Source: an uncultured Oscillospiraceae bacterium | GTDB taxonomy: Bacteria > Bacillota > Clostridia > UMGS1883 | NCBI GenBank assembly: GCA_964390145.1 | Contig: CAYMHB010000003.1 | Span: 3,145-67,144, forward strand | DNA length: 64,000 nucleotides | Direction of reading: 5' to 3' | Part shown: positions 39,025 through 51,458 of the stretch, piece after piece | How the letters are laid out: every line of letters starts with the position of its first letter | Position numbering within the stretch: position 1 is the stretch's first letter | The notes under the pieces: model-generated | The model's input: the letters and a program-made list of their open reading frames with translations, nothing else | Told to the model about the DNA's origin: nothing | The model's database searches: none | Translations under genes and position numbers: made by a program

Positions 39025-39142
39025 AAGGATTATAGTACATTTTCACACTTTTTGCAATATGAAAACATATTTTTTCGTATTTACCTTTTTAAAAATATCA
39101 TTTATTCTTATTATATAATCTATTTTTACGGAGGTTATGATT

Positions 39143-40419
39143 ATGAAAAAATTAAACGTTGCCATAATTGGCCAGGGAAGAAGCGGTCGCGATATTCACG
39201 GCTATTACTTCAAAAACTTCGGTACAGAACTTTATAATGTTGTAGCGGTGGTAGACCGTGACGCAAGAAGAAGGGAAATAGCACTTGCTGAGTATCCAGG
39301 TTGCGAAGCTTTTGAATCGTATCAGGAACTGTATGGCAGAAAAGATATTGACCTTGTAATAAACTCTACAATTTCCAATGAGCACTTTCAGGTTGCAAAG
39401 GAAAAAGGTGTCAAACTCGGTGTGTTCCAGCAGACTTTCTTGACACCTTATTACTTAAAATCGCAGGAAGTTATTGCAAGCGGGAAACTCGGCGAAATCA
39501 AGCAGGTTGATATTACATTCAGTGGTTTCTCGAGAAGATGGGACTGGCAGTGTGCACAGATGCAAAAGCTATGCTTGAAAACGAAAAAACAGATGTTTGC
39601 TGTATCCTTACTCCCAGCGGTATACACCGTGACTGTGTTTGCCTTTGTGCCCAGCACGGAGTAAATGTTCTTTGTGAAAAACCGCTTGAGGTTACACGCG
39701 AAAAAATGCAGAAAATGATAGATTGTTGCCACGAAAACAACGTGAAACTTGGCTGCATTTTCCAAAGGCGCACCTATGAAGGTGTTATAAAATCGAAAGA
39801 AGCCGTTGAAAAAGGATATCTTGGTAAAGTTACTCTTGCGGATGCATCGCTTAAGTATTACAGGGATCAGGAATATTATGACAGCGGCGAGTGGAGGGCA
39901 ACGTGGGAACTTGACGGAGGCGGTGCGCTGATGAATCAGGGCGTGCATGGCGTTGATATGCTTCAATATGTCATGGGCGGAGTTCATTCTGTGAATGCTA
40001 TCTGCAAAAATCTGGTCTGGGATATAGAGGTCGAGGATACTGCCGTAGTTATGGTCAAGTTCAAAAACGGTGCAGTCGGTGTCATTCAGGCGGCGACCAG
40101 CGTTTATCCGGGACTGGATACAGTTCTTAGCTTCCACGGTTCTGAAGGAAGTATTTCTTTCGGAGACGAAAGTCTTCTCCTTTGGAATCTGAAAGATAAA
40201 AACATCGAGCCACCTGTAATTAACGGAAGTATGGGAGGAGAAAACTGTCAGTACTCAACTACTAATTCAGGACACATAATTTTGGTTGAAGATATGGCAA
40301 TGTCTTTAATTGAGGGAAGAGACCCGATGATAACAGGCGAGGATGCTAAAAAAAGCGTGGAAATCATCCTTGCTATATATGAATCTGCACGGACAGGAAA
40401 AGAAATTATTCTTGATTAA
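39143..40419 (+). pseudogene. decayed and chimeric Gfo/Idh/MocA-family oxidoreductase locus (two overlapping frames)
   Basis: Frame A (39137/39143..39664) has the Rossmann motif VAIIGQGRSGR but lacks the ...AGKHVLCEKP... segment and ends out of frame after RRWDWQ. Frame B (39538..40419) starts mid-Rossmann (CTDAKAMLENEKTDV...VLCEKPLEV...) without GxGxxG. Confidence 0.65.
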
Positions 40420-40510: not shown

Positions 40511-41092
40511 ATGGATTTTGGTTTTATATTTACTAATGCAGCTTTCGGAATCGGTCTTGCTATGGATGCGTTCTCAGTTTCTCTTGCTGACGGACTTCGC
40601 GAGCCTTGCATGAAAAGAAAGAAAATATTCCTGATTGCAATTGTATTTACGATTTTTCAGGGGTTGATGCCCATCATCGGTTGGTTCTGCGTTCATTCAA
40701 TCGCAGAAAAGTTTGAGGCTTTTGAACCTTTCATACCGTGGATTGCACTTGCACTTCTTCTTTACATAGGTGTCGGAATGATTCGCGAAGGCTTTTGCGA
40801 GGAAGAAGATGCTTGTTCATGCAACGAAGCACTTAGTTTTACCGCCCTTATGGTTCAGGGTATTGCAACCTCAATCGACGCACTTTCTGTTGGATTTACA
40901 ATCGCTGAATACGGTGCTTTAAAGGCGGTTGCGGCAGCATCAATCATTGCGGCATTAACTTTTGTGATATGCTATGCAGGTGTTGTAATAGGTAAGAAAT
41001 TCGGTACGAAATTCGCACAGAAATCATCTGTTTTCGGCGGTATCATACTCATACTTATCGGACTTAAAATATTTATAGAAGGTGTAATGTAA
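40511..41092 (+). CDS. mntP: manganese efflux pump MntP
   Basis: It has the duplicated DUF204 motifs AMDAFSVSLADG and SIDALSVGFT, and 6 TM segments. Confidence 0.85.
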   Translation: MDFGFIFTNAAFGIGLAMDAFSVSLADGLREPCMKRKKIFLIAIVFTIFQGLMPIIGWFCVHSIAEKFEAFEPFIPWIALALLLYIGVGMIREGFCEEEDACSCNEALSFTALMVQGIATSIDALSVGFTIAEYGALKAVAAASIIAALTFVICYAGVVIGKKFGTKFAQKSSVFGGIILILIGLKIFIEGVM

Positions 41093-41093
41093 A

Positions 41094-41134
41094 ACAAAAA
41101 TACCGCAGGACATAAGTCCTGCGGTATTTTTGTT
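41094..41134. terminator. bidirectional terminator between convergent mntP and the SPFH gene
   Basis: The hairpin taccgcaggac ataa gtcctgcggta is flanked by an A-run and a T-run. Confidence 0.8.
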
Positions 41135-42019
41135 TTAGTCTTTAAAAAGTTCCTTACAACTTGAGGCAAGTCCGGCGAGTGACTGTATTTCAGATGGAAT
41201 AATAATCTTTGTTGCTTTACCGTCGGAAACTTTTTCCATTGTTTCAAGAGATTTAATCGCAATATAAGACTTCGAGGGATCTGCCTCGTTGATTTTCTTG
41301 ATACCTTCTGCGATAGCAGTCTGTACAGCGATAATAGCTTCAGCTTCACCTTCCGCTTCGCGGATTGCAGCTTGCTTTTTAGCTTCCGCGCGAAGAATTG
41401 CCGATTCTTTTTCGCCCTCTGCCATAAGAATTGAAGATTTCTTTTCACCCTCTGCGCGAAGAATTGCCTCGCGGCGTTCGCGCTCTGCCTTCATCTGTTT
41501 TTCCATCGCGTTCTGGATTTCTCTGGGAGGAATAATGTTTTTTAGCTCAACACGGTTGATTTTAATTCCCCAAGGGTCAGTAGCTTCGTCAAGAATGGCG
41601 CGCATCTTTGTATTTACTGTGTCGCGCGATGTAAGTGTTCCGTCAAGGTCAAGGTCACCGATTATATTACGAAGTGTAGTTGCGGTCAGATTTTCGATCG
41701 CCATCATAGGACGCTCAACGCCGTATGTGTATAGCTTGGGATCGGTTATCTGGAAATATACAACAGTATCAATCTGCATTGAAACATTATCCTTTGTAAT
41801 AACTGGCTGGGGAGGGAAGTCAACAACCTGTTCCTTGAGGTTTACTTTTTTTGAAATACGGTCGATAAAAGGAATTTTGAAATGAAGACCTACGCTCCAG
41901 GTTGTCTGATATCCGCCAAAACGTTCAATAACATAAGCGTATGCCTGCGGAACAACCTTGATGTTTGAGATTACAAGGATGATAAAAACCAAAAAAACAG
42001 TAAAAATAATGCTACCCAT
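41135..42019 (-). CDS. SPFH/band-7 (stomatin/prohibitin-like) protein
   Basis: It has an N-terminal TM, an SPFH core (VPQAYAYVIERFGGY...) and an EA-rich coiled coil. Confidence 0.9.
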   Translation of the reverse strand: MGSIIFTVFLVFIILVISNIKVVPQAYAYVIERFGGYQTTWSVGLHFKIPFIDRISKKVNLKEQVVDFPPQPVITKDNVSMQIDTVVYFQITDPKLYTYGVERPMMAIENLTATTLRNIIGDLDLDGTLTSRDTVNTKMRAILDEATDPWGIKINRVELKNIIPPREIQNAMEKQMKAERERREAILRAEGEKKSSILMAEGEKESAILRAEAKKQAAIREAEGEAEAIIAVQTAIAEGIKKINEADPSKSYIAIKSLETMEKVSDGKATKIIIPSEIQSLAGLASSCKELFKD

Positions 42020-42041: not shown

Positions 42042-42464
42042 TTAAATTTTATCTACAATCAATTTAACGCCGTCAATCTCTTTAACTGTGACATATGAAT
42101 CCTTCTCAATAGGCTCCCCGTCAGCACTTCTGGCACTCCACTCTATACCGCGGAGTTTTACGCTTCCTTTTGCATCAATATTGGATATGTCGTCAGTTAC
42201 AATTGCAGACTGCCCGATAAGAGCATCTGCATTTGTTTTTGCAGGCTCTTTAGATTTAAGTTTATCCACAATTTTCTTTGTGGATACTAAAAGTATCGCG
42301 GAAGAAATCACAAAAACACCGGTCTGTACAGTGGTGCTCAGGTTTAAAAGTGCGCATATAAGAGAACATAATGCTCCGCCGGCGAACCATATACATATAA
42401 GCTGGGTTGTTGACGCTTCAAGCACTAAGAAACCGATTAGTAATACCATCCACAAAATTTCCAT
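42042..42464 (-). CDS. NfeD-family membrane protein
   Basis: It has 3 N-terminal TM segments plus a C-terminal OB-like NfeD domain (GSVKLRGIEWSARS). It forms the canonical pair with the SPFH gene. Confidence 0.8.
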   Translation of the reverse strand: MEILWMVLLIGFLVLEASTTQLICIWFAGGALCSLICALLNLSTTVQTGVFVISSAILLVSTKKIVDKLKSKEPAKTNADALIGQSAIVTDDISNIDAKGSVKLRGIEWSARSADGEPIEKDSYVTVKEIDGVKLIVDKI

Positions 42465-44152: not shown

Positions 44153-44221
44153 TGGTAATTTTCCTTTTTTGTGTGATGAAATAATTATAACACAGCAGTT
44201 TTCTGAATTCCAACGGGAATT

Positions 44222-45391
44222 TCAGGAAGTTGCCTTTTCAAGATAATATACAAACCTCTCAAAAGGTTTCGTATGTGCATTAAATATAATTTCGATTCCC
44301 ATATCGCGCGCTCGTTCAAGGATTCTTTCGCGCGCAGAAATATTTTTGGAAAGATAAGTACATATAAGCACCTTTTTTGCATATGTACCGCCAAGCGCCC
44401 TCGCGACGGAATCAAGTTCGTACAGCGCTTCTTTTTTTACTTCTCCGTTTTTGCATGACACAAACACGGGAAGGGAAGATGAGATTGCCATTACATCGAT
44501 TTCATTTTGTGTTTCAAAGTATTTTTTTCTGACATCCCACTCAATCTGCACCCCGACTTTTATGTCGGACAGACTTTTGGTTTCCGCCATTGCAATAGCC
44601 GAATAATACTCAAGCGCATTGCCCGATTTTTTAAGACACATTGAAACAATGTGCGATTTGATTTTATAAGTGAGAGTTCTTTCATTCTCATCAATTTTTC
44701 CGATGAGGTTTTTTTCCTCCAGAAGCCTTAAAACAGGATAGATATCACGCCTTGCACGAGTGATGTTTTTCTCCAAATCGCTTTTAATTATACCGAGAGT
44801 CTTATAATCCTCCGACAAAAACTCCGATACTGCATTACACATGGCGCTAAATGCCTCGGGATTATGACTGTTTACTTCGAAAACACTTTTGAGTGTGGCA
44901 ATATCTTCATATGTAAAAGAATTTATGTCATCGTATGACAGCACGTGTCCGCCCTGAAGCGATATAAGGTCAAATACGCCAAGCGAGGCTTTTTTAAAGG
45001 ATAAATTTTTCGGCCTTCCATGAACAAAAGTACATTTTTTGGTCCTTACATCTATACGGATTACGGGAATTGAATAACGCTCTGAAATTACGCCGACATT
45101 GGTCAAAATAACATCCTCGCCACCGGTTGCATCGAAAACAGCGTCAGGATTGCTTTTTATAATTTGAACCAGTCTGTTTTTTATGGATGCCTCGTTATCG
45201 CGCTCAACATAATAAAATTCCAAAGGAACACTGTACTTTATTCTGTCAAAAAACAGGCGGATGTTATTGATTTTTTCACCCGTCATAACCTCTTTTGTCC
45301 CTACATAAACAAGCTTCTTAATGTCAAGACTGACGGGCGTTATTATATTTTCATATTGCTTTGCGTCAAAAATCTCAATAAGCGTACACAT
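44222..45391 (-). CDS. CARF-domain protein with a C-terminal DUF1887 / PD-(D/E)xK nuclease-like domain (Card1/Can2-like)
   Basis: It has an N-terminal Rossmann-like CARF region (VFDATGGEDVIL). The C-terminus NEIDVMAISSSLPVFVSCKNGEV matches the Card1-type D...(E)xK block. The size is ~390 aa. Confidence 0.6.
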   Translation of the reverse strand: MCTLIEIFDAKQYENIITPVSLDIKKLVYVGTKEVMTGEKINNIRLFFDRIKYSVPLEFYYVERDNEASIKNRLVQIIKSNPDAVFDATGGEDVILTNVGVISERYSIPVIRIDVRTKKCTFVHGRPKNLSFKKASLGVFDLISLQGGHVLSYDDINSFTYEDIATLKSVFEVNSHNPEAFSAMCNAVSEFLSEDYKTLGIIKSDLEKNITRARRDIYPVLRLLEEKNLIGKIDENERTLTYKIKSHIVSMCLKKSGNALEYYSAIAMAETKSLSDIKVGVQIEWDVRKKYFETQNEIDVMAISSSLPVFVSCKNGEVKKEALYELDSVARALGGTYAKKVLICTYLSKNISARERILERARDMGIEIIFNAHTKPFERFVYYLEKATS

Positions 45392-45537
45392 AATTACCCT
45401 GCTTTCTCTAATTGCAAGAAGGTTAAATACAATATATAGAATATTGCAATCATATTATACTGCAAAATATAGAAAATGTCAATTAAAGCACGAAAACAAA
45501 ATATAGCAAAAAACTTGATTTCAAAAGCATAAAAATA

Positions 45538-45610: not shown

Positions 45611-47776
45611 ATGAAAAACGAAACTGATTATTGTGAAAAAGAGATGTTCGAAAAACTTGAAAAAATCGGTATCGATACAAGTAGCATCATAGCTACTCTT
45701 GTAACTGATCTTGACCGCCCCGCAAGTTACGGTAAAACAACTCTTTGTGCTTTGACGGACGCTCTTTGCATACTTGGCGAAGATGGAAGTTTCATTCTCA
45801 AAAATTATAAAGACATTTCGGATGTCTACACAGATACATATGTTTCTTCCGGCTCGCTCATTATAAGGGAGGGCGAAAAACTCTCTGCAATTGCTGATTT
45901 CACACTCGCAGTTTCGGCGCGTGTGGAGTGGTTTGTGAATATCCTTCAAAAACTTCTCGCAGGTGAAGTGCCGAATGCGGATGAAAGCGCTATCAGGCAA
46001 AACGCAGATTTTGAATATATAAACAGCGGCAGAAAGAAACTTTTCCTAAGAGTGCTTTCCTATGTGCCGAGGTATAAAAAACATCTTATTGCTATGATGG
46101 CAATCATCATACTCTCGGCACTTGTGAATTTGTTGCCTCCGTATTTATCGGGTAATATTTTATATGATGAGGTGTTAAATCCCGACGGAAAATATGCAGG
46201 GGCAATTTTACCTCTTGTTTCGATTCTTGTGCTTATATCGGCTGTGACAGTTGTCCTCGGAATACTTCTCGGCAGAATTGGTGCAGAAATGTCGGGTAAC
46301 ATTATCTACGACATCAAAACGGAAGTTTTTTCTGCTATGCAAAATCTCGGGATGAGCTTTTTCTCATCAAAACGCACGGGAAATCTGCTCAACCGCATAA
46401 ACAGCGATGCACTTGATATTCAGTACTTCCTGAATGACGGACTGCCGAACTTCATAATAAATGCGGCTACAATATGTGCAATCGGACTTTTCCTTTTTAT
46501 CGTAAATCCGATTCTTTCCGTTGCGGTTCTGGTGCCGGTACCCATTATCGCGCTTATTATTAAAAAATCCACAAGGAAGTTTAAAAAAATCAAGTGGCAC
46601 ACATGGCGCCGTTCTTCAACAATGAACTCTGTTATAAACGATACGCTTTTGGGTGTTCGGGTGGTAAAGGCTTTCGGCAAAGAGGAAACTGAAATAGAAA
46701 GATTCAATGAATCAAGCAGACTCCTTGCGGAAAACAAAGTCCGTGAAGGCGTTGCCGCGGCAAAAGTTTTCCCGATGCTCAGCTTCATTATGTCGCTCGG
46801 CGGGCTTATCGTATGGGGAATTGGCGGCGGACAGGTTATCCGCGGAAAACTTACATTCGGTGAACTTATGACATTTGTCGGTTACCTTTCACTTTTGTAC
46901 GCACCGGTTAATTTTATGGTTAAGACATTTGACTGGTGGACTAACTGTATGAACAGCGCCCAGCGTATTTTTGAGGTTATCGACAGAAAAACCGATGTGC
47001 CCGAAAAAGAAAATGCGGCTAATATCAACGTGGAAGGAAATATCGAACTCAAAAATGTAACCTTCTCGTACGAACCAAACCGAACAGTGCTAAAAAACGT
47101 TTCCTTCACAGTTGAAAAAGGCGAAATGATTGGCCTTGTCGGACACAGTGGCGCAGGAAAAAGCACAATCACAAACCTTATTACCCGTCTTTACGATGTC
47201 AATGACGGAGAGGTTTTGATAGACGGAATAAATGTAAAAGATATCAGTTTCAATTGCCTTCGCGGCAGTATTGGTATGGTACTTCAGGAGACATTCCTTT
47301 TTGAAGGAACAATTGCGGAAAATATCGCGTACGGAAAGCCTGATGCTTCTACCGAAGAAATTGTAGAGGCGGCAAAAAAAGCATACGCACACGATTTTAT
47401 AACCTCGCTTCCTGACGGGTACGATACCCTGATTGGCAAAGGTGGTGCGGATTTATCAGGTGGTGAGAGGCAGCGTATAAGCATTGCCCGTGCAATTCTT
47501 ATGAATCCGCCTATACTTATTTTTGATGAGGCTACATCATCGCTTGATACGAAGACTGAACAGCAGATACAAATGGCGATGGATTTCTTGATGAAAGACA
47601 GGACGACCATTGCAATAGCGCACAGATTTTCAACTCTTAAAAATGCCAACAGGCTGATAGTAGTTGAAAAAGGCGAAATCGTTGAGGATGGCACGCACGA
47701 AGAACTCTTCAACAAAAAAGACGGCGTTTATGCAAGAATGGCACATCTTCAACTGGACGCGCTTAACCTTTCTTGA
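45611..47776 (+). CDS. ABC exporter half-transporter (TMD-NBD) with a ~140-aa N-terminal cytosolic extension
   Basis: It has Walker A GHSGAGKST, the signature LSGGERQRI, and Walker B ILIFDEATSSLD, with 6 TM segments. An AAAGGAGG RBS is present. Confidence 0.9.
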   Translation: MKNETDYCEKEMFEKLEKIGIDTSSIIATLVTDLDRPASYGKTTLCALTDALCILGEDGSFILKNYKDISDVYTDTYVSSGSLIIREGEKLSAIADFTLAVSARVEWFVNILQKLLAGEVPNADESAIRQNADFEYINSGRKKLFLRVLSYVPRYKKHLIAMMAIIILSALVNLLPPYLSGNILYDEVLNPDGKYAGAILPLVSILVLISAVTVVLGILLGRIGAEMSGNIIYDIKTEVFSAMQNLGMSFFSSKRTGNLLNRINSDALDIQYFLNDGLPNFIINAATICAIGLFLFIVNPILSVAVLVPVPIIALIIKKSTRKFKKIKWHTWRRSSTMNSVINDTLLGVRVVKAFGKEETEIERFNESSRLLAENKVREGVAAAKVFPMLSFIMSLGGLIVWGIGGGQVIRGKLTFGELMTFVGYLSLLYAPVNFMVKTFDWWTNCMNSAQRIFEVIDRKTDVPEKENAANINVEGNIELKNVTFSYEPNRTVLKNVSFTVEKGEMIGLVGHSGAGKSTITNLITRLYDVNDGEVLIDGINVKDISFNCLRGSIGMVLQETFLFEGTIAENIAYGKPDASTEEIVEAAKKAYAHDFITSLPDGYDTLIGKGGADLSGGERQRISIARAILMNPPILIFDEATSSLDTKTEQQIQMAMDFLMKDRTTIAIAHRFSTLKNANRLIVVEKGEIVEDGTHEELFNKKDGVYARMAHLQLDALNLS

Positions 47777-47789
47777 AAGGATGATGAAA

Positions 47790-48299
47790 ATGGAAGAAAA
47801 ACTGAGCTACTTAGATGCAAGTGACCTTGAATTTTATACTTCGGACACTTCTCTTTTGTTTCTTCGCTATAGAGGGGAGGACCTCGGAAGAGTATCTATT
47901 ATAAGAATGTTCCCCTTTAAGCACGAGGAGGAATATATTGTAATCCGTCAGGAAAACTATTCAATACACGATAAAGAAAGCGAAATCGGAATACTTCGCG
48001 CAGTAAATGAGCTTCCTGAAAATCAGGCAAATCTTGTGCGCGAGGAACTCGAAAAGAGATATTTTATTCCCGACATCATTTCGGTAAGTGATGTAAAAGA
48101 AGAATTTGGAAGTGCTACATGGAAAACTACGACCACTGCAGGTGAGAGGGAATTTACTATGACAGACCTCGGAACAAATGTAAGAGGTCTTGGTAATAAT
48201 CGCGTTATGCTGGTAGATGTTTACGGAAACAGATATTACATCCCCGACATAACAAAAGCGGACGATAAAACACAAAAGGTTCTTGAAATCTGGATATAA
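47790..48299 (+). CDS. DUF1854-family protein (ABC-transporter-associated)
   Basis: It is sandwiched between two ABC genes, and the sequence (RMFPF...YFIPDI...VDVYGNRYYIPDI) is as I recall for DUF1854. I chose the start at 47790 from the AAAGGA spacing. The track ORF extends upstream into the ABC gene. Confidence 0.65.
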   Translation: MEEKLSYLDASDLEFYTSDTSLLFLRYRGEDLGRVSIIRMFPFKHEEEYIVIRQENYSIHDKESEIGILRAVNELPENQANLVREELEKRYFIPDIISVSDVKEEFGSATWKTTTTAGEREFTMTDLGTNVRGLGNNRVMLVDVYGNRYYIPDITKADDKTQKVLEIWI

Positions 48300-48313
48300 A
48301 AGGAGGCTTTTGC

Positions 48314-50584
48314 ATGAATCAGGCGGCGTCAATAATTAAATACAGTAAGCTTTTTGACCGTGCGCTTGATGGTGCAGAAATCCTGATTGCGTCAGATTTT
48401 GACTTGTCTTCAAGCGGCAAATATGTGAGTGGTGCCTTTGCGGTAAGCAGGGATAAAATCTGCGTTGTAACAGATGAAAAAGTAACACTGATTGAAAACA
48501 TATCAAACATTGAAAAGGTTTGCTGCGGAGAATATACAGGCGGTGGAATATTAGAGGCTTATTTTAAGGATGGCAGAAAACAAATTGTCCGTTTCACCAT
48601 GCGCTATATAGAACAGTTCAGCGCGATTGCTGAAATAATAAATGAGCTTGCATTGGGAAATGTCCCTCTGATAAACGAAAAAACTTTCCCGAAGGAACGG
48701 GTTTGCCCCAAATGCGGAAAACCGTTTATAAGAAACACAACAGTTTGCAGGTTCTGCACAGATAAGTTTGGAATAATTAAAAGATTGTGGTCTCTTTCAA
48801 AAAGCTGCAGACCGCTTTATGCAATTTTGCTGCTTCTTTTCTGGATAACAAGTGCCGCAACAGTTGCTACTCCCGAACTTTCAAAAAGGCTTATAAATGA
48901 TGTTCTCAATAACAAAAACGCATCGGCAAAAACACTTATTCTGATAGTTTTATTGATGCTTTTCTGCGGTGCTGTTACCTGGATTGTTGCTGCACTGCGC
49001 GATATCATTTCCTCAAAAGCAAGTAACACTCTTGTAATGGAGCTTCGCAATCACATTTATAAAAAACTTCAGGAAATGCCGCTTTCTTACATTGAGGAAA
49101 AGAAAACGGGTGACCTGATGCAACGAATTAACAACGATACACAACGTATTCAGACATTTATTCAGGACATCGCCATTATGGCAGTTAACGAAGTGTGTCT
49201 TTTTATCGCAGTTGCAATCATAACTTTTATGCTTAATGCGAAAATGGCACTTTTGATATTTATTCCGATGCCGTTTGCAGCATTTTTGGTAAATATAATA
49301 CGTCGTAGCATAAGAAGGCGCTATATGAAGCAGTGGCGCAAGATGGATAAACTTACAAACCGCCTTACTGAAGTCCTTAACGGAATAAAGGTAGTTAAGG
49401 TCTTTGGCAGAGAAAATGACGAGATAGACCGCTTCAAAGAAACTGCAGGCGTTGTAAGGGATATTACATGTAAAAACGAGAAATATGTTTATACAGTTTT
49501 TCCGCTTATCAAATTCCTTATGGGTCTTGGCGGATATTTCGTGCTTCTTTACGGCGGAAGTATGGTTCTCGGAAATAATATGAGCGTAGGTGAACTTGTA
49601 CAGTTTTCTTCCTACGGAAGCTTTCTTTACAGTAAACTCGAATGGTTTACAATGCTTCCCAGACACTTTACAATGGCAATGGTAAGCTCACAGCGCGTAT
49701 TTGAAGTGCTTGACGAAACCGATGAAAAGGTTGGCGCAAGTGATTCTCGCATAGACGACATTAAAGATAAAATTGAATTTCAGAAGGTATCTTTTGGCTA
49801 CAAGAGTTACCGAAAGGTGCTTAAAAATATAAATGAAAGTGTCAGAAAAGGCGAAATGATAGGACTTGTAGGACACAGTGGAGCAGGTAAGAGCACACTT
49901 ATAAACCTCATAATGCGTCTTTACAATGCAGACAGCGGAAAGATATTGCTCGACGGCATCGACGTAAATGATTATCAAAAGGACGATTATAAGGATATGC
50001 TCGGTGTAGTGCTTCAGGAAAGTTACCTCTTCAGCGGAACTATTCTGGAAAACATCTGCTATTCAAATCCTTCTGCAACATTGGAAGATTGCGTGCTCGC
50101 TGCAAAAAAGGCAAATGCACATGATTTTATAATGTCGCTGCCGGATGCATATGATACATATGTAGGCGAGAAGGGACACCGTCTTTCAGGTGGTGAGAGA
50201 CAAAGGATTTCGATTGCCCGTGCAATTATTTCAAATCCAAAACTTCTGGTACTCGACGAGGCGACGGCATCGGTAGACACCCAGACCGAACAAAAGATAC
50301 AAAGCGCACTCAAAAATGTTACGGAAGGCAAAACTGTTTTTGCGATTGCACACAGACTCTCGACACTCAAAAATGCCGACAGACTCTTTGTCCTTGAGGA
50401 AGGAAAAATTGTTGAAACGGGAACGCATAAGGAACTTGTAGAAAAAGACGGCATATATGCTTCGCTTCTTCGTGCACAGCAGGAGATGGCTACAAGAAGC
50501 ACAACAATAGATAATACTCATATTAAAAAGGACGAATCAGAAACAAAAAATTTCGAAGGGAATGTAGAAGATGAGCAAGATTAA
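48314..50584 (+). CDS. ABC exporter half-transporter with a ~170-aa N-terminal extension including a zinc ribbon
   Basis: It has Walker A GHSGAGKST, LSGGERQRI and LLVLDEATASVD. The N-terminal extension contains CPKCGKPFIRNTTVCRFC. Confidence 0.9.
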   Translation: MNQAASIIKYSKLFDRALDGAEILIASDFDLSSSGKYVSGAFAVSRDKICVVTDEKVTLIENISNIEKVCCGEYTGGGILEAYFKDGRKQIVRFTMRYIEQFSAIAEIINELALGNVPLINEKTFPKERVCPKCGKPFIRNTTVCRFCTDKFGIIKRLWSLSKSCRPLYAILLLLFWITSAATVATPELSKRLINDVLNNKNASAKTLILIVLLMLFCGAVTWIVAALRDIISSKASNTLVMELRNHIYKKLQEMPLSYIEEKKTGDLMQRINNDTQRIQTFIQDIAIMAVNEVCLFIAVAIITFMLNAKMALLIFIPMPFAAFLVNIIRRSIRRRYMKQWRKMDKLTNRLTEVLNGIKVVKVFGRENDEIDRFKETAGVVRDITCKNEKYVYTVFPLIKFLMGLGGYFVLLYGGSMVLGNNMSVGELVQFSSYGSFLYSKLEWFTMLPRHFTMAMVSSQRVFEVLDETDEKVGASDSRIDDIKDKIEFQKVSFGYKSYRKVLKNINESVRKGEMIGLVGHSGAGKSTLINLIMRLYNADSGKILLDGIDVNDYQKDDYKDMLGVVLQESYLFSGTILENICYSNPSATLEDCVLAAKKANAHDFIMSLPDAYDTYVGEKGHRLSGGERQRISIARAIISNPKLLVLDEATASVDTQTEQKIQSALKNVTEGKTVFAIAHRLSTLKNADRLFVLEEGKIVETGTHKELVEKDGIYASLLRAQQEMATRSTTIDNTHIKKDESETKNFEGNVEDEQD

Positions 50585-51458
50585 AATCATTACTGACAGC
50601 GGCAGCGATATTTCAGTTGAAACCGCACAAAAACTCGGAATACGCGTTCTTCCTATTTCATTTACATTTGACGGTGAAACATATTACAGGGAAGGGCTTG
50701 ATATGAGCAAAGCTGAATTTTATGAAAAGCTTTCAGACAAAGATGCTCCTATCCCGAAAACTGCTCAGGTAACACCCATTCAGTTTATCGATGCATATAA
50801 CGAAGAATACGATAATGGCTATGATATCCTCATCGTCGTTACTATTTCCTCAAAGGGCAGCGGCATGTACCAGAACGCCGTTATGTCTGCACAGGAAGTT
50901 ATGGATGAGCGCGGCGGAGAAATTATTGTTATTGATACTATGGGTTATTCCTGCATGTACGGTGCGCCCGTTATCCATGCGGCTAATATGATTAGTGAGG
51001 GGAAGGGAAAGGACGAGATTGTTTCCTACCTTAAAGAATCAACGGGAAGCATCAAGACATATTTCCTTGTAGATGAACTTTTGCATCTGAAAAAAGGCGG
51101 AAGAATCAACTCTGCAACGCTTGTTCTTGCAAATATGCTTGAAATAAAGCCCATCCTTGACATAAGGGACGGACTTGTGGTTCAGGACGGCTCTCTCAGA
51201 GGCAGCAAACGCCTTATGAAAAAGCTTGTTAACAAGGCGAAAACCGACGGATACGACCTTTCGGGAAGAAGAGTTTTCGTTGCGAATACATCTTGCCCCG
51301 ATATTGCAGAAGAACTTAAGGCAGAACTTTCAGAAGCGTTTGATGGTATTGAATTCAACGAATACAGAGTTGGCTCTGTAATAGGTTGCCACGGTGGACC
51401 GGGACTTGTTGGTTTTGTGTTTTCAGACAAATATGATTTTGAAGATTTTGAGGGTTAA
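50571..51458 (+). CDS. DegV-family fatty-acid-binding protein
   Basis: It begins KIITDSGSDI and has DegV-like sequence throughout. Its start overlaps the end of the ABC gene by 14 nt. Confidence 0.85.
   Translation: MSKIKIITDSGSDISVETAQKLGIRVLPISFTFDGETYYREGLDMSKAEFYEKLSDKDAPIPKTAQVTPIQFIDAYNEEYDNGYDILIVVTISSKGSGMYQNAVMSAQEVMDERGGEIIVIDTMGYSCMYGAPVIHAANMISEGKGKDEIVSYLKESTGSIKTYFLVDELLHLKKGGRINSATLVLANMLEIKPILDIRDGLVVQDGSLRGSKRLMKKLVNKAKTDGYDLSGRRVFVANTSCPDIAEELKAELSEAFDGIEFNEYRVGSVIGCHGGPGLVGFVFSDKYDFEDFEG

Follow-up and report, generated by a model that had tools for sequence, protein, structure and literature searches.

The Can2/Card1-like gene and its product

The DNA analysed here, referred to as the window, is a stretch of 64,000 nucleotides (nt) on contig CAYMHB010000003.1 of an uncultured Oscillospiraceae bacterium (assembly GCA_964390145.1), and the subject of this work is a gene on its minus strand for a Can2/Card1-like protein of 389 amino acids (aa), P0001, to which all residue numbers refer. 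On the same strand it is followed by genes for a GH26-like secreted protein, an NfeD-family membrane protein and an SPFH/Band_7 protein, and its divergence from an ATP-binding cassette (ABC) transporter/DUF1854 operon, noted in an initial annotation made from the letters alone, was confirmed (Table 1). The same annotation had read the product as a CARF protein with a PD-(D/E)xK nuclease domain resembling Card1/DUF1887, and profile and structure searches agree with it. Residues 256-375 matched the Pfam family Card1_endonuc (PF09002) with an E-value of 5.9e-12 and 45.8 bits (curated cut-off 26.4), and residues 3-378 matched the PADLOC model CARF4--CARF_PDDEXK over its full length (3.7e-37). A search of NCBIfam with P0001 gave no match and a single-sequence phmmer search against the PDB was marginal (E 0.064), while a profile of 63 homologues found VC1899 (5e-17) and SthCan2 (5.8e-15), and also the Can2 structure 8BAO and Cdn1, over near full length. 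The AlphaFold2 model of P0001, built on the homologue alignment, had a predicted local distance difference test score (pLDDT) of 94.3 and a predicted template modelling score (pTM) of 0.90; its top PDB match in Foldseek was 1XMX, that is VC1899 (template modelling score, TM, 0.77; E 1e-21), followed by 9U49 (Cdn1), 7BDV, 8BAO and 6XL1. Both a CARF fold and a restriction-endonuclease fold, on which the earlier call had been made to depend, were found in this way, the nuclease core being modelled as alpha-beta-beta-beta-alpha-beta.

The central segment for which a winged helix had been proposed (RDIYPVLRLLEEKNLIGKIDENERTLTYKIK, residues 214-244) lies in a helix-helix-hairpin of the model (helices 203-213 and 218-226, strands 230-235 and 239-244), and the same insertion is present in Can2 and VC1899 (Zhu et al., 2021). 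The winged helix of P0001 is therefore real, but it is the known Can2/VC1899 insertion rather than a new output domain. Csa3, a CARF transcription factor in which a winged helix-turn-helix (wHTH) is the sole output domain, shares the CARF domain with P0001 and has no nuclease domain, whereas in P0001 a full nuclease domain follows the insertion; in Foldseek, Csa3, Cam1 and the Crn1/ring nucleases aligned with the CARF part alone (for Csa3, TMq 0.26 and E 1e-5 to 1e-4). With a CARF domain at the N-terminus and, C-terminally, a PF09002 domain carrying the winged-helix-like insertion, P0001 is a genuine relative of the Can2/Card1/DUF1887 (CARF4) family.

Table 1. Features of the Can2/Card1-like locus, with positions counted from the first nucleotide of the window.
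Feature	Position (nt)	Strand	Remarks
Can2/Card1-like gene (P0001), 389 aa	44222..45391	-	CARF + winged-helix-like insertion + PD-(D/E)xK; clade A of the Ser-Cys-Lys branch
CARF (Rossmann-like) sensor domain, residues ~1-155	44927..45391	-	Conserved loops E6/D9/N15 and D87-A-T89-G90-G91-E92-D93
Winged-helix-like insertion, residues ~196-253	44633..44806	-	From the model; normal in Can2 and VC1899
PD-(D/E)xK nuclease core, residues 256-375	44267..44626	-	PF09002 match; invariant E261 (preceding helix) and invariant R360
N296-E297-I298-D299, intact motif II	44495..44506	-	Equivalent to Can2 E276/D278, VC1899 E291/D293, Cdn1 E308/E310
S312-C313-K314, motif III	44450..44458	-	Ser for canonical Glu; invariant in 195 homologues
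Consensus sigma-70-type promoter, TTGACA-17-TATAAT (12/12)	45454..45482	-	~60 nt upstream of the Can2-like start
Spacer at 3' end of the indel	44153..44221	-	Holds a second promoter-like site, TTGGAA-18-(TG)TATAAT, at 44184-44213
GH26-like secreted protein, 557 aa	42479..44152	-	Signal peptide; core gene of the genus
NfeD-family membrane protein	42042..42464	-	Host operon
SPFH/Band_7 protein	41135..42019	-	Host operon
Hairpin, 20-bp stem	41092..41135		Between convergent mntP and SPFH genes; likely a bidirectional terminator ending the operon
ABC-DUF1854-ABC-DegV unit	45611-51458		Divergent from the Can2-like gene

A nuclease motif with an invariant serine

The second segment picked out by the initial annotation, NEIDVMAISSSLPVFVSCKNGEV (residues 296-318), carries motifs II and III of the nuclease. 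HMMER alignments with VC1899, SthCan2, 8BAO and Cdn1 placed N-E297-I-D299 on N-E-x-D and S312-C-K314 on E-C-K, which bears out the reading of a Ser at the position of the catalytic Glu: set beside the canonical E-x-D and E-x-K, P0001 keeps E297-x-D299 and K314 and has Ser312 for the Glu of motif III. The annotation had called the motif atypical and proposed an alignment of homologues as a check; the motif is no oddity of one gene but defines a family. All 120 database homologues, down to 24% identity, read (V/I)-S-C-K, and residues E261, N296, E297, D299, S312, C313, K314 and R360 were 100% conserved in a set of 195 sequences, of which 53 are close (clade A) and the other 142 more distant (clade B). 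When one genome per species was scanned, relatives with P-[VIL]-F-[VI]-S-C-K-N-G turned up in 519 species, and the carriers listed among them are almost all metagenome-assembled genomes (MAGs) of gut or rumen Clostridia. The Glu-to-Ser change is a fixed variant, not decay, and the Ser-Cys-Lys branch is large, previously undescribed and unnamed, and largely confined to Clostridia.

Glu276 and Asp278 of Can2, the counterparts of E297 and D299, were named key active-site residues, and TsuCan2 was inactivated by E302A/K304A (Zhu et al., 2021), a pair that we take to be its E-x-K motif. In Cdn1, residues E308, E310 and E323 together with K325 hold a Mg2+-water network; since the Glu equivalent to S312 belongs to this network, the serine replaces a genuine metal-site residue. 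A precedent for such a replacement is found among the Cfr10I/NgoMIV/SgrAI restriction endonucleases, an otherwise unrelated family of active PD-(D/E)xK enzymes: Cfr10I has a Ser at the motif III acid position, as P0001 does, and a later Glu has been proposed to supply the missing acid (PMC2532715). By analogy with Cfr10I, a Ser at motif III would be compatible with catalysis, and E261 and E297 are candidate compensating acids in P0001. We therefore regard the S-C-K site as a fixed variant that is probably still catalytic.

A constrained CARF pocket unlike that for cA4

The contacts of SthCan2 with cyclic tetra-adenylate (cA4) that are conserved with Can1 are S19, T42, K99 and Y118 (Zhu et al., 2021). 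In a profile alignment these residues correspond to D9, T32, D93 and R112 of P0001, so that only the Thr is retained and the set of cA4 contacts is, as judged from this alignment, not preserved. Where Can2 holds cA4 by Ser19 and Lys99, the CARF loops of the Ser-Cys-Lys branch are acidic (D9, E92, D93), and position 93 is acidic in clade A and clade B alike. Across the 195 sequences G90 and G91 are invariant and E6, D9, N15, D87 and T89 are 82-100% conserved. To judge from these alignments, the pocket is constrained yet unlike a cA4 pocket. Residues K11, R64 and R112 are in addition fixed in clade A and variable in clade B, and the clade A branch in the tree is long (length 1.28, support 100/100), which is consistent with a shift after its split from the rest of the family; the extra fixed basic residues suggest a further shift in ligand.

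VC1899 of Vibrio cholerae (PDB 1XMX), the founding DUF1887 protein, is the best structural and profile match to P0001 and has the same three-part architecture. It is likewise an orphan outside any type III system, does not respond to cA4 and has a CARF pocket unable to hold it, with an Asp at the position of Can2 S19 (Zhu et al., 2021). What the two proteins share is nevertheless a condition and not a subfamily: at ~15% identity to P0001, VC1899 keeps E-C-K, has Arg96 where P0001 has Asp93, and belongs to another phylum and another gene context.

Search for a signalling partner

The source assembly is a MAG of 1.49 Mb in 53 contigs and is 82% complete. No match to Csm1, Cas1, the Cas10 palm, mCpol or SMODS was found in the whole assembly, and a scan for 20-mer spacing across the genome detected no CRISPR-like arrays, so that what the initial annotation had said of the window, that it holds no CRISPR-Cas genes and no cyclase of the kinds sought, also applies genome-wide. 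Given that absence from a single MAG proves little, the search was widened to the GTDB family. A Cas10 palm domain was found in none of its 64 genomes, 24 of which are at least 90% complete, and control genomes scored as expected. Cas10 was also absent from all 13 genomes carrying close-clade members, as was CorA, which is missing from the source genome too; the combination of Cas10, CorA and a degrading enzyme that makes up a module signalling with S-adenosylmethionine-AMP (SAM-AMP) is accordingly not present there. Among the 39 genomes of the genus, mCpol occurred in none and SMODS in one. Because the GTDB family is without Cas10 and no mCpol or CD-NTase tracks the gene, activation of P0001 must be independent of type III CRISPR, and for this lineage an effector role in trans for some distant type III locus is effectively excluded.

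The source genome does encode a housekeeping DAC-domain cyclase. The presence of the cyclase shows only that a conceivable host signal, cyclic di-AMP (c-di-AMP), is available. The precedent, by analogy only, is a stand-alone TIR-SAVED effector that senses host c-di-AMP with no cognate cyclase (Choudhary et al., bioRxiv 2025); unlike P0001 it has a SAVED rather than a CARF domain, is an NADase rather than a nuclease and comes from an archaeal host.

The characterized proteins of the family, namely SthCan2 (7BDV), TresuCard1 (6WXW/6XL1), the Can2 of 8BAO and Cdn1 (9U49), are activated by cA4 or cyclic hexa-adenylate (cA6) and belong to type III CRISPR systems. P0001 has in common with them the full-length fold, N-E-x-D, the Cys-Lys of motif III, the helix Glu and the T-G-G loop of the CARF domain, and it differs from them in the motif III Ser, in D9/D93/R112 for S19/K99/Y118, and in coming from a genome and a family without Cas10. 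Because it lacks these three features that define the family functionally (the Glu of E-x-K, the cA4 contacts and the linkage to Cas10), P0001 should be filed as a variant and not as Can2.

Distant relatives at CorA-type III-B loci

Clade B members have at most 37% identity to P0001 and occur in many unrelated contexts, several of which resemble mobile elements (TIR-Sel1 genes, AAA ATPase, ClpP, a type IV secretion system (T4SS) coupling protein, integrase). Cas10 was found in five of 50 clade B genomes; like P0001, the distant members are mostly orphans. Each of the five Cas10-positive genomes encodes a homologue of CorA as well, and in four cases it lies on the contig that carries Cas10. At loci L070 and L038 the Can2-like gene adjoins Cmr1?-Cas10/Cmr2-Cmr3-Cmr4-Cmr5-Cmr6 and a CRISPR-type CorA (PADLOC CorA, 6e-61), with Cas6 in addition at L038, and in three genomes the family member lies on a different contig from the CorA-type III-B locus or ~15 kb away from it. 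Since CorA is present in only 53 of 1113 surveyed type III loci (Hoikkala et al., 2024), its occurrence in five of five is unlikely to be due to chance, with the proviso that the five genomes are not phylogenetically independent and that the surveyed rate is not specific to Clostridia. CorA-type III-B systems, as known from Bacteroides fragilis (Chi et al., 2023), are thus the only CRISPR loci found with Ser-Cys-Lys members. Published CorA systems signal with SAM-AMP and require NrN, DEDD or a SAM-AMP lyase; no CRISPR arrays were present in the retrieved parts of the CorA loci, and in the literature on SAM-AMP signalling that we searched no CARF effector for SAM-AMP is described. Because the only CRISPR-linked relatives accompany CorA-type III-B, the original signal of the family is probably whatever these systems make.

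Other genes recur near clade B members. A CapA/PGA_cap-like metallophosphatase gene (Pfam, 2e-69) lies directly upstream of the Can2-like gene in L070 (8807-9979) and L038 (62-1216). In L005 (185-21236; also in L006 and L007) a clade B member stands beside three TIR_2-Sel1/TPR proteins and two small HTH_3 proteins, with AAA ATPase, YbjN, T4SS coupling protein, ClpP and transglutaminase-like genes in the same island, which looks like conjugative-element cargo or a defence island. A membrane protein of ~700-860 aa (cluster c6) and a protein of ~93 aa (c17) recur beside clade B genes in L087 (3300-6159), L029, L053, L073 and others, often together with a giant AAA/FtsH-like protein (c63) and a sigma-like protein (c64).

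An accessory one-gene cassette in the leader of a core operon

The genetic context of clade A is uniform. In all close-clade loci the order is Can2-like, GH26-like, NfeD and SPFH on one strand, and the outer flanks vary. Among the 39 genomes of the genus, 30 have the GH26-like orthologue and 14 the clade A gene; the two are adjacent in 13 of these 14, the last being interrupted by a contig end, and 16 genomes have the GH26-like gene alone. Six of the gene-less genomes were inspected, and none showed a remnant upstream of the GH26-like gene. Two of the six, the sister-species loci L102 and L103, reproduce the order of the window minus the gene, with DegV-ABC-DUF1854-ABC divergent from GH26-like/NfeD/SPFH, and aligning them with the window revealed a common TTGACA-17-TATAAT promoter and a common ribosome-binding region of the GH26-like gene. 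In the gene-less relatives this promoter drives the GH26-like gene directly, as the first gene of the operon, and in the window the two elements are separated by a segment of ~1.25 kb of its own, consisting of the Can2-like open reading frame (ORF) and ~70 nt. The borders of the indel showed neither direct repeats nor remnants in this alignment. The Can2-like gene is thus an accessory one-gene cassette that occupies the leader of the GH26-like/NfeD/SPFH operon, itself a core block, which reverses the earlier impression that its neighbours were the accessory genes.

Insertion and deletion are indistinguishable from the indel sequence itself; co-divergence favours ancestral presence and later losses. 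The Can2-like protein and the neighbouring GH26-like protein vary together in their identity to relatives in the genus (Spearman 0.82, p 5e-4), with the Can2-like gene evolving faster (45-78% against 55-79% identity within the genus), and all 14 copies in the genus have an intact reading frame free of stops. The gene has therefore long been part of the genus, passing down by vertical inheritance, with repeated clean losses. Vertical inheritance, faster evolution and repeated loss are the marks of an accessory, dispensable module, and they speak against a regulator dedicated to the operon. Two other candidates were rejected. A homing-endonuclease-like selfish element does not fit a gene that co-diverges with its neighbour, occupies one fixed site and has a sensor domain. 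A functional four-gene system of the Can2-like, GH26-like, NfeD and SPFH proteins found no backing in PADLOC or in the literature, where a search for NfeD/SPFH in defence gave nothing relevant, and the empty sites settled the matter.

Some further observations concern the surrounding genes. The ABC transporters (85-89% protein identity) and DegV (80-90%) are conserved in L102 and L103, which lack the Can2-like gene, and the ABC-DUF1854-ABC-DegV unit is on that account independent of it. Of the GH26-like protein, just residues 346-472 correspond to the GH26 profile (its positions 128-246 of 311), with no family match for the signal peptide and the ~330 N-terminal residues, and several genomes encode a second GH26-like paralogue of 35-40% identity. 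At 39137-40419 the window holds two overlapping Gfo/Idh/MocA ORFs (175 and 293 aa) where the relative L002 has three intact ones (340, 284 and 356 aa); the two look like a decayed or fused paralogue pair.

Discussion

On balance, we favour the explanation that P0001 is a Cas10-independent, ligand-gated nuclease whose ligand is not cA4. The protein would be a dimeric nuclease that stays off until a small molecule, though not cA4, occupies its CARF pocket; this would permit metal-dependent cutting of DNA and/or RNA, and cutting would lead to growth arrest or defence. The parts of this proposal are not equally secure. Nuclease activity, as predicted from the conserved site, is somewhat more probable than its absence, and gating by a ligand appears likely to a similar degree; a role in defence is close to an even bet, and any assignment of the ligand to a class is doubtful at best. 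Of the three roles offered by the initial annotation, a sensor recruited to another pathway is the best supported, the effector of a distant type III locus fell with the Cas10-less GTDB family, and the nuclease-dead regulator is weakened because S312 and the rest of the site are invariant, because Cfr10I is active with its Ser, and because the operon keeps its promoter where the gene is missing.

Several points weigh against the ligand-gated nuclease. The Glu that S312 replaces helps to hold the metal in Cdn1, so that the variant could be much slower or inactive. VC1899, the closest structural match, showed essentially no activity in vitro, and no ligand is known for it (Zhu et al., 2021). The mapping of the pocket is based on a profile alignment and not on a ligand-bound structure, and the incompleteness of the MAG limits what its gene content can say. 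With a perfect consensus promoter in front of it, a nuclease has to be either harmless or tightly gated. PADLOC returned nothing for the GH26-like, NfeD and SPFH proteins, and no defence genes flank the locus. Lastly, no NrN, DEDD or SAM-lyase was detected by Pfam in the Clostridia CorA loci L070, L038 and L109 (G031:C8), so that SAM-AMP can be assigned to them only indirectly.

A bolder form of the proposal, which we consider rather improbable, is that the Ser-Cys-Lys branch comprises the first CARF effectors tuned to something other than a cyclic oligoadenylate. At CorA loci it would read SAM-AMP or a relative, its acidic pocket matching the positive charge of such a ligand, and in Cas10-less lineages it would have been retuned to a host- or phage-derived molecule, in clade A through the K11, R64 and R112 fixed on the long branch. 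P0001 would then be a CRISPR-independent, single-gene sensor-nuclease immune module.

Four other explanations rank lower than the ligand-gated nuclease. P0001 might be a catalytically impaired, ligand-responsive DNA-binding regulator of the GH26-like/NfeD/SPFH operon in the manner of Csa3. Its gene opens a unit of four genes on one strand, the gaps being short and no terminator-like site lying between it and the GH26-like gene, the arrangement is kept in 15 loci despite differing flanks, the winged-helix-like insertion is there, the metal-holding Glu is not, and one source calls a homologue a 'predicted transcriptional regulator'. This account is nonetheless unlikely, since promoter and operon persist in the relatives that have lost the gene, distant members sit in many unrelated contexts, the remaining catalytic residues, needless for a mere DNA binder, are all invariant, and the insertion is generic to Can2 and VC1899, the match to Csa3 covering the CARF part alone. 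Quite unlikely, too, is a protein that removes or sponges a signal, binding or hydrolysing SAM-AMP or a similar CorA-type product, as an off-switch in CorA loci and as an anti-CRISPR on mobile elements. The lack of degrading enzymes at the CorA loci with family members, the many clade B copies beside integrase, T4SS coupling protein and TIR genes, and the fact that CARF domains can be ring nucleases would all agree with it; P0001, however, is chromosomal and vertically inherited in a family with no Cas10 and hence no such signal to remove, and it retains the full invariant nuclease site.

That P0001 is a non-functional relic of a lost type III system, drifting to decay, would account for the missing signal generator, for the repeated losses within the genus and for an evolution faster than that of its neighbour, but it is highly improbable in view of intact frames throughout the genus, a consensus promoter still in place, and site and pocket residues that remain 98-100% conserved within the clade while overall identity falls to 45%. 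Close to negligible is the chance that P0001 is an ancillary effector of the ordinary kind, acting in trans for a CorA-type III locus that lies hidden in the unassembled 18% of the genome. The incomplete MAG allows for such a locus, and in three genomes a family member does lie apart from its CorA-type III-B locus; against this stand the absence of Cas10 from the GTDB family and from the close-clade genomes, the absence of CorA from the latter, and a source genome in which neither Cas1, Csm1 nor an array was found.

CARF effectors are usually understood as receivers of cyclic oligoadenylates made by Cas10. The lineage described here comprises CARF nucleases retained under strong constraint, across the divergence of a genus, in a bacterial family that lacks Cas10. 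Orphan DUF1887 proteins were already known from VC1899; what this locus adds is retention in a Cas10-less family, the empty sites that mark the gene as a one-gene cassette of an operon leader, divergence in step with a neighbour that goes along with repeated loss, and clade-specific changes of the pocket. Since one and the same site is occupied in some sister species and empty in others, a clean natural knock-out series is at hand. An active P0001 would show that other inputs can be coupled to CARF sensors, and its CRISPR-linked cousins would then offer a route to asking whether a nuclease serves as a second effector in CorA (SAM-AMP) systems and what the CARF pocket of that effector binds. 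An inactive one would add to the orphans of the VC1899 type and be of modest interest.

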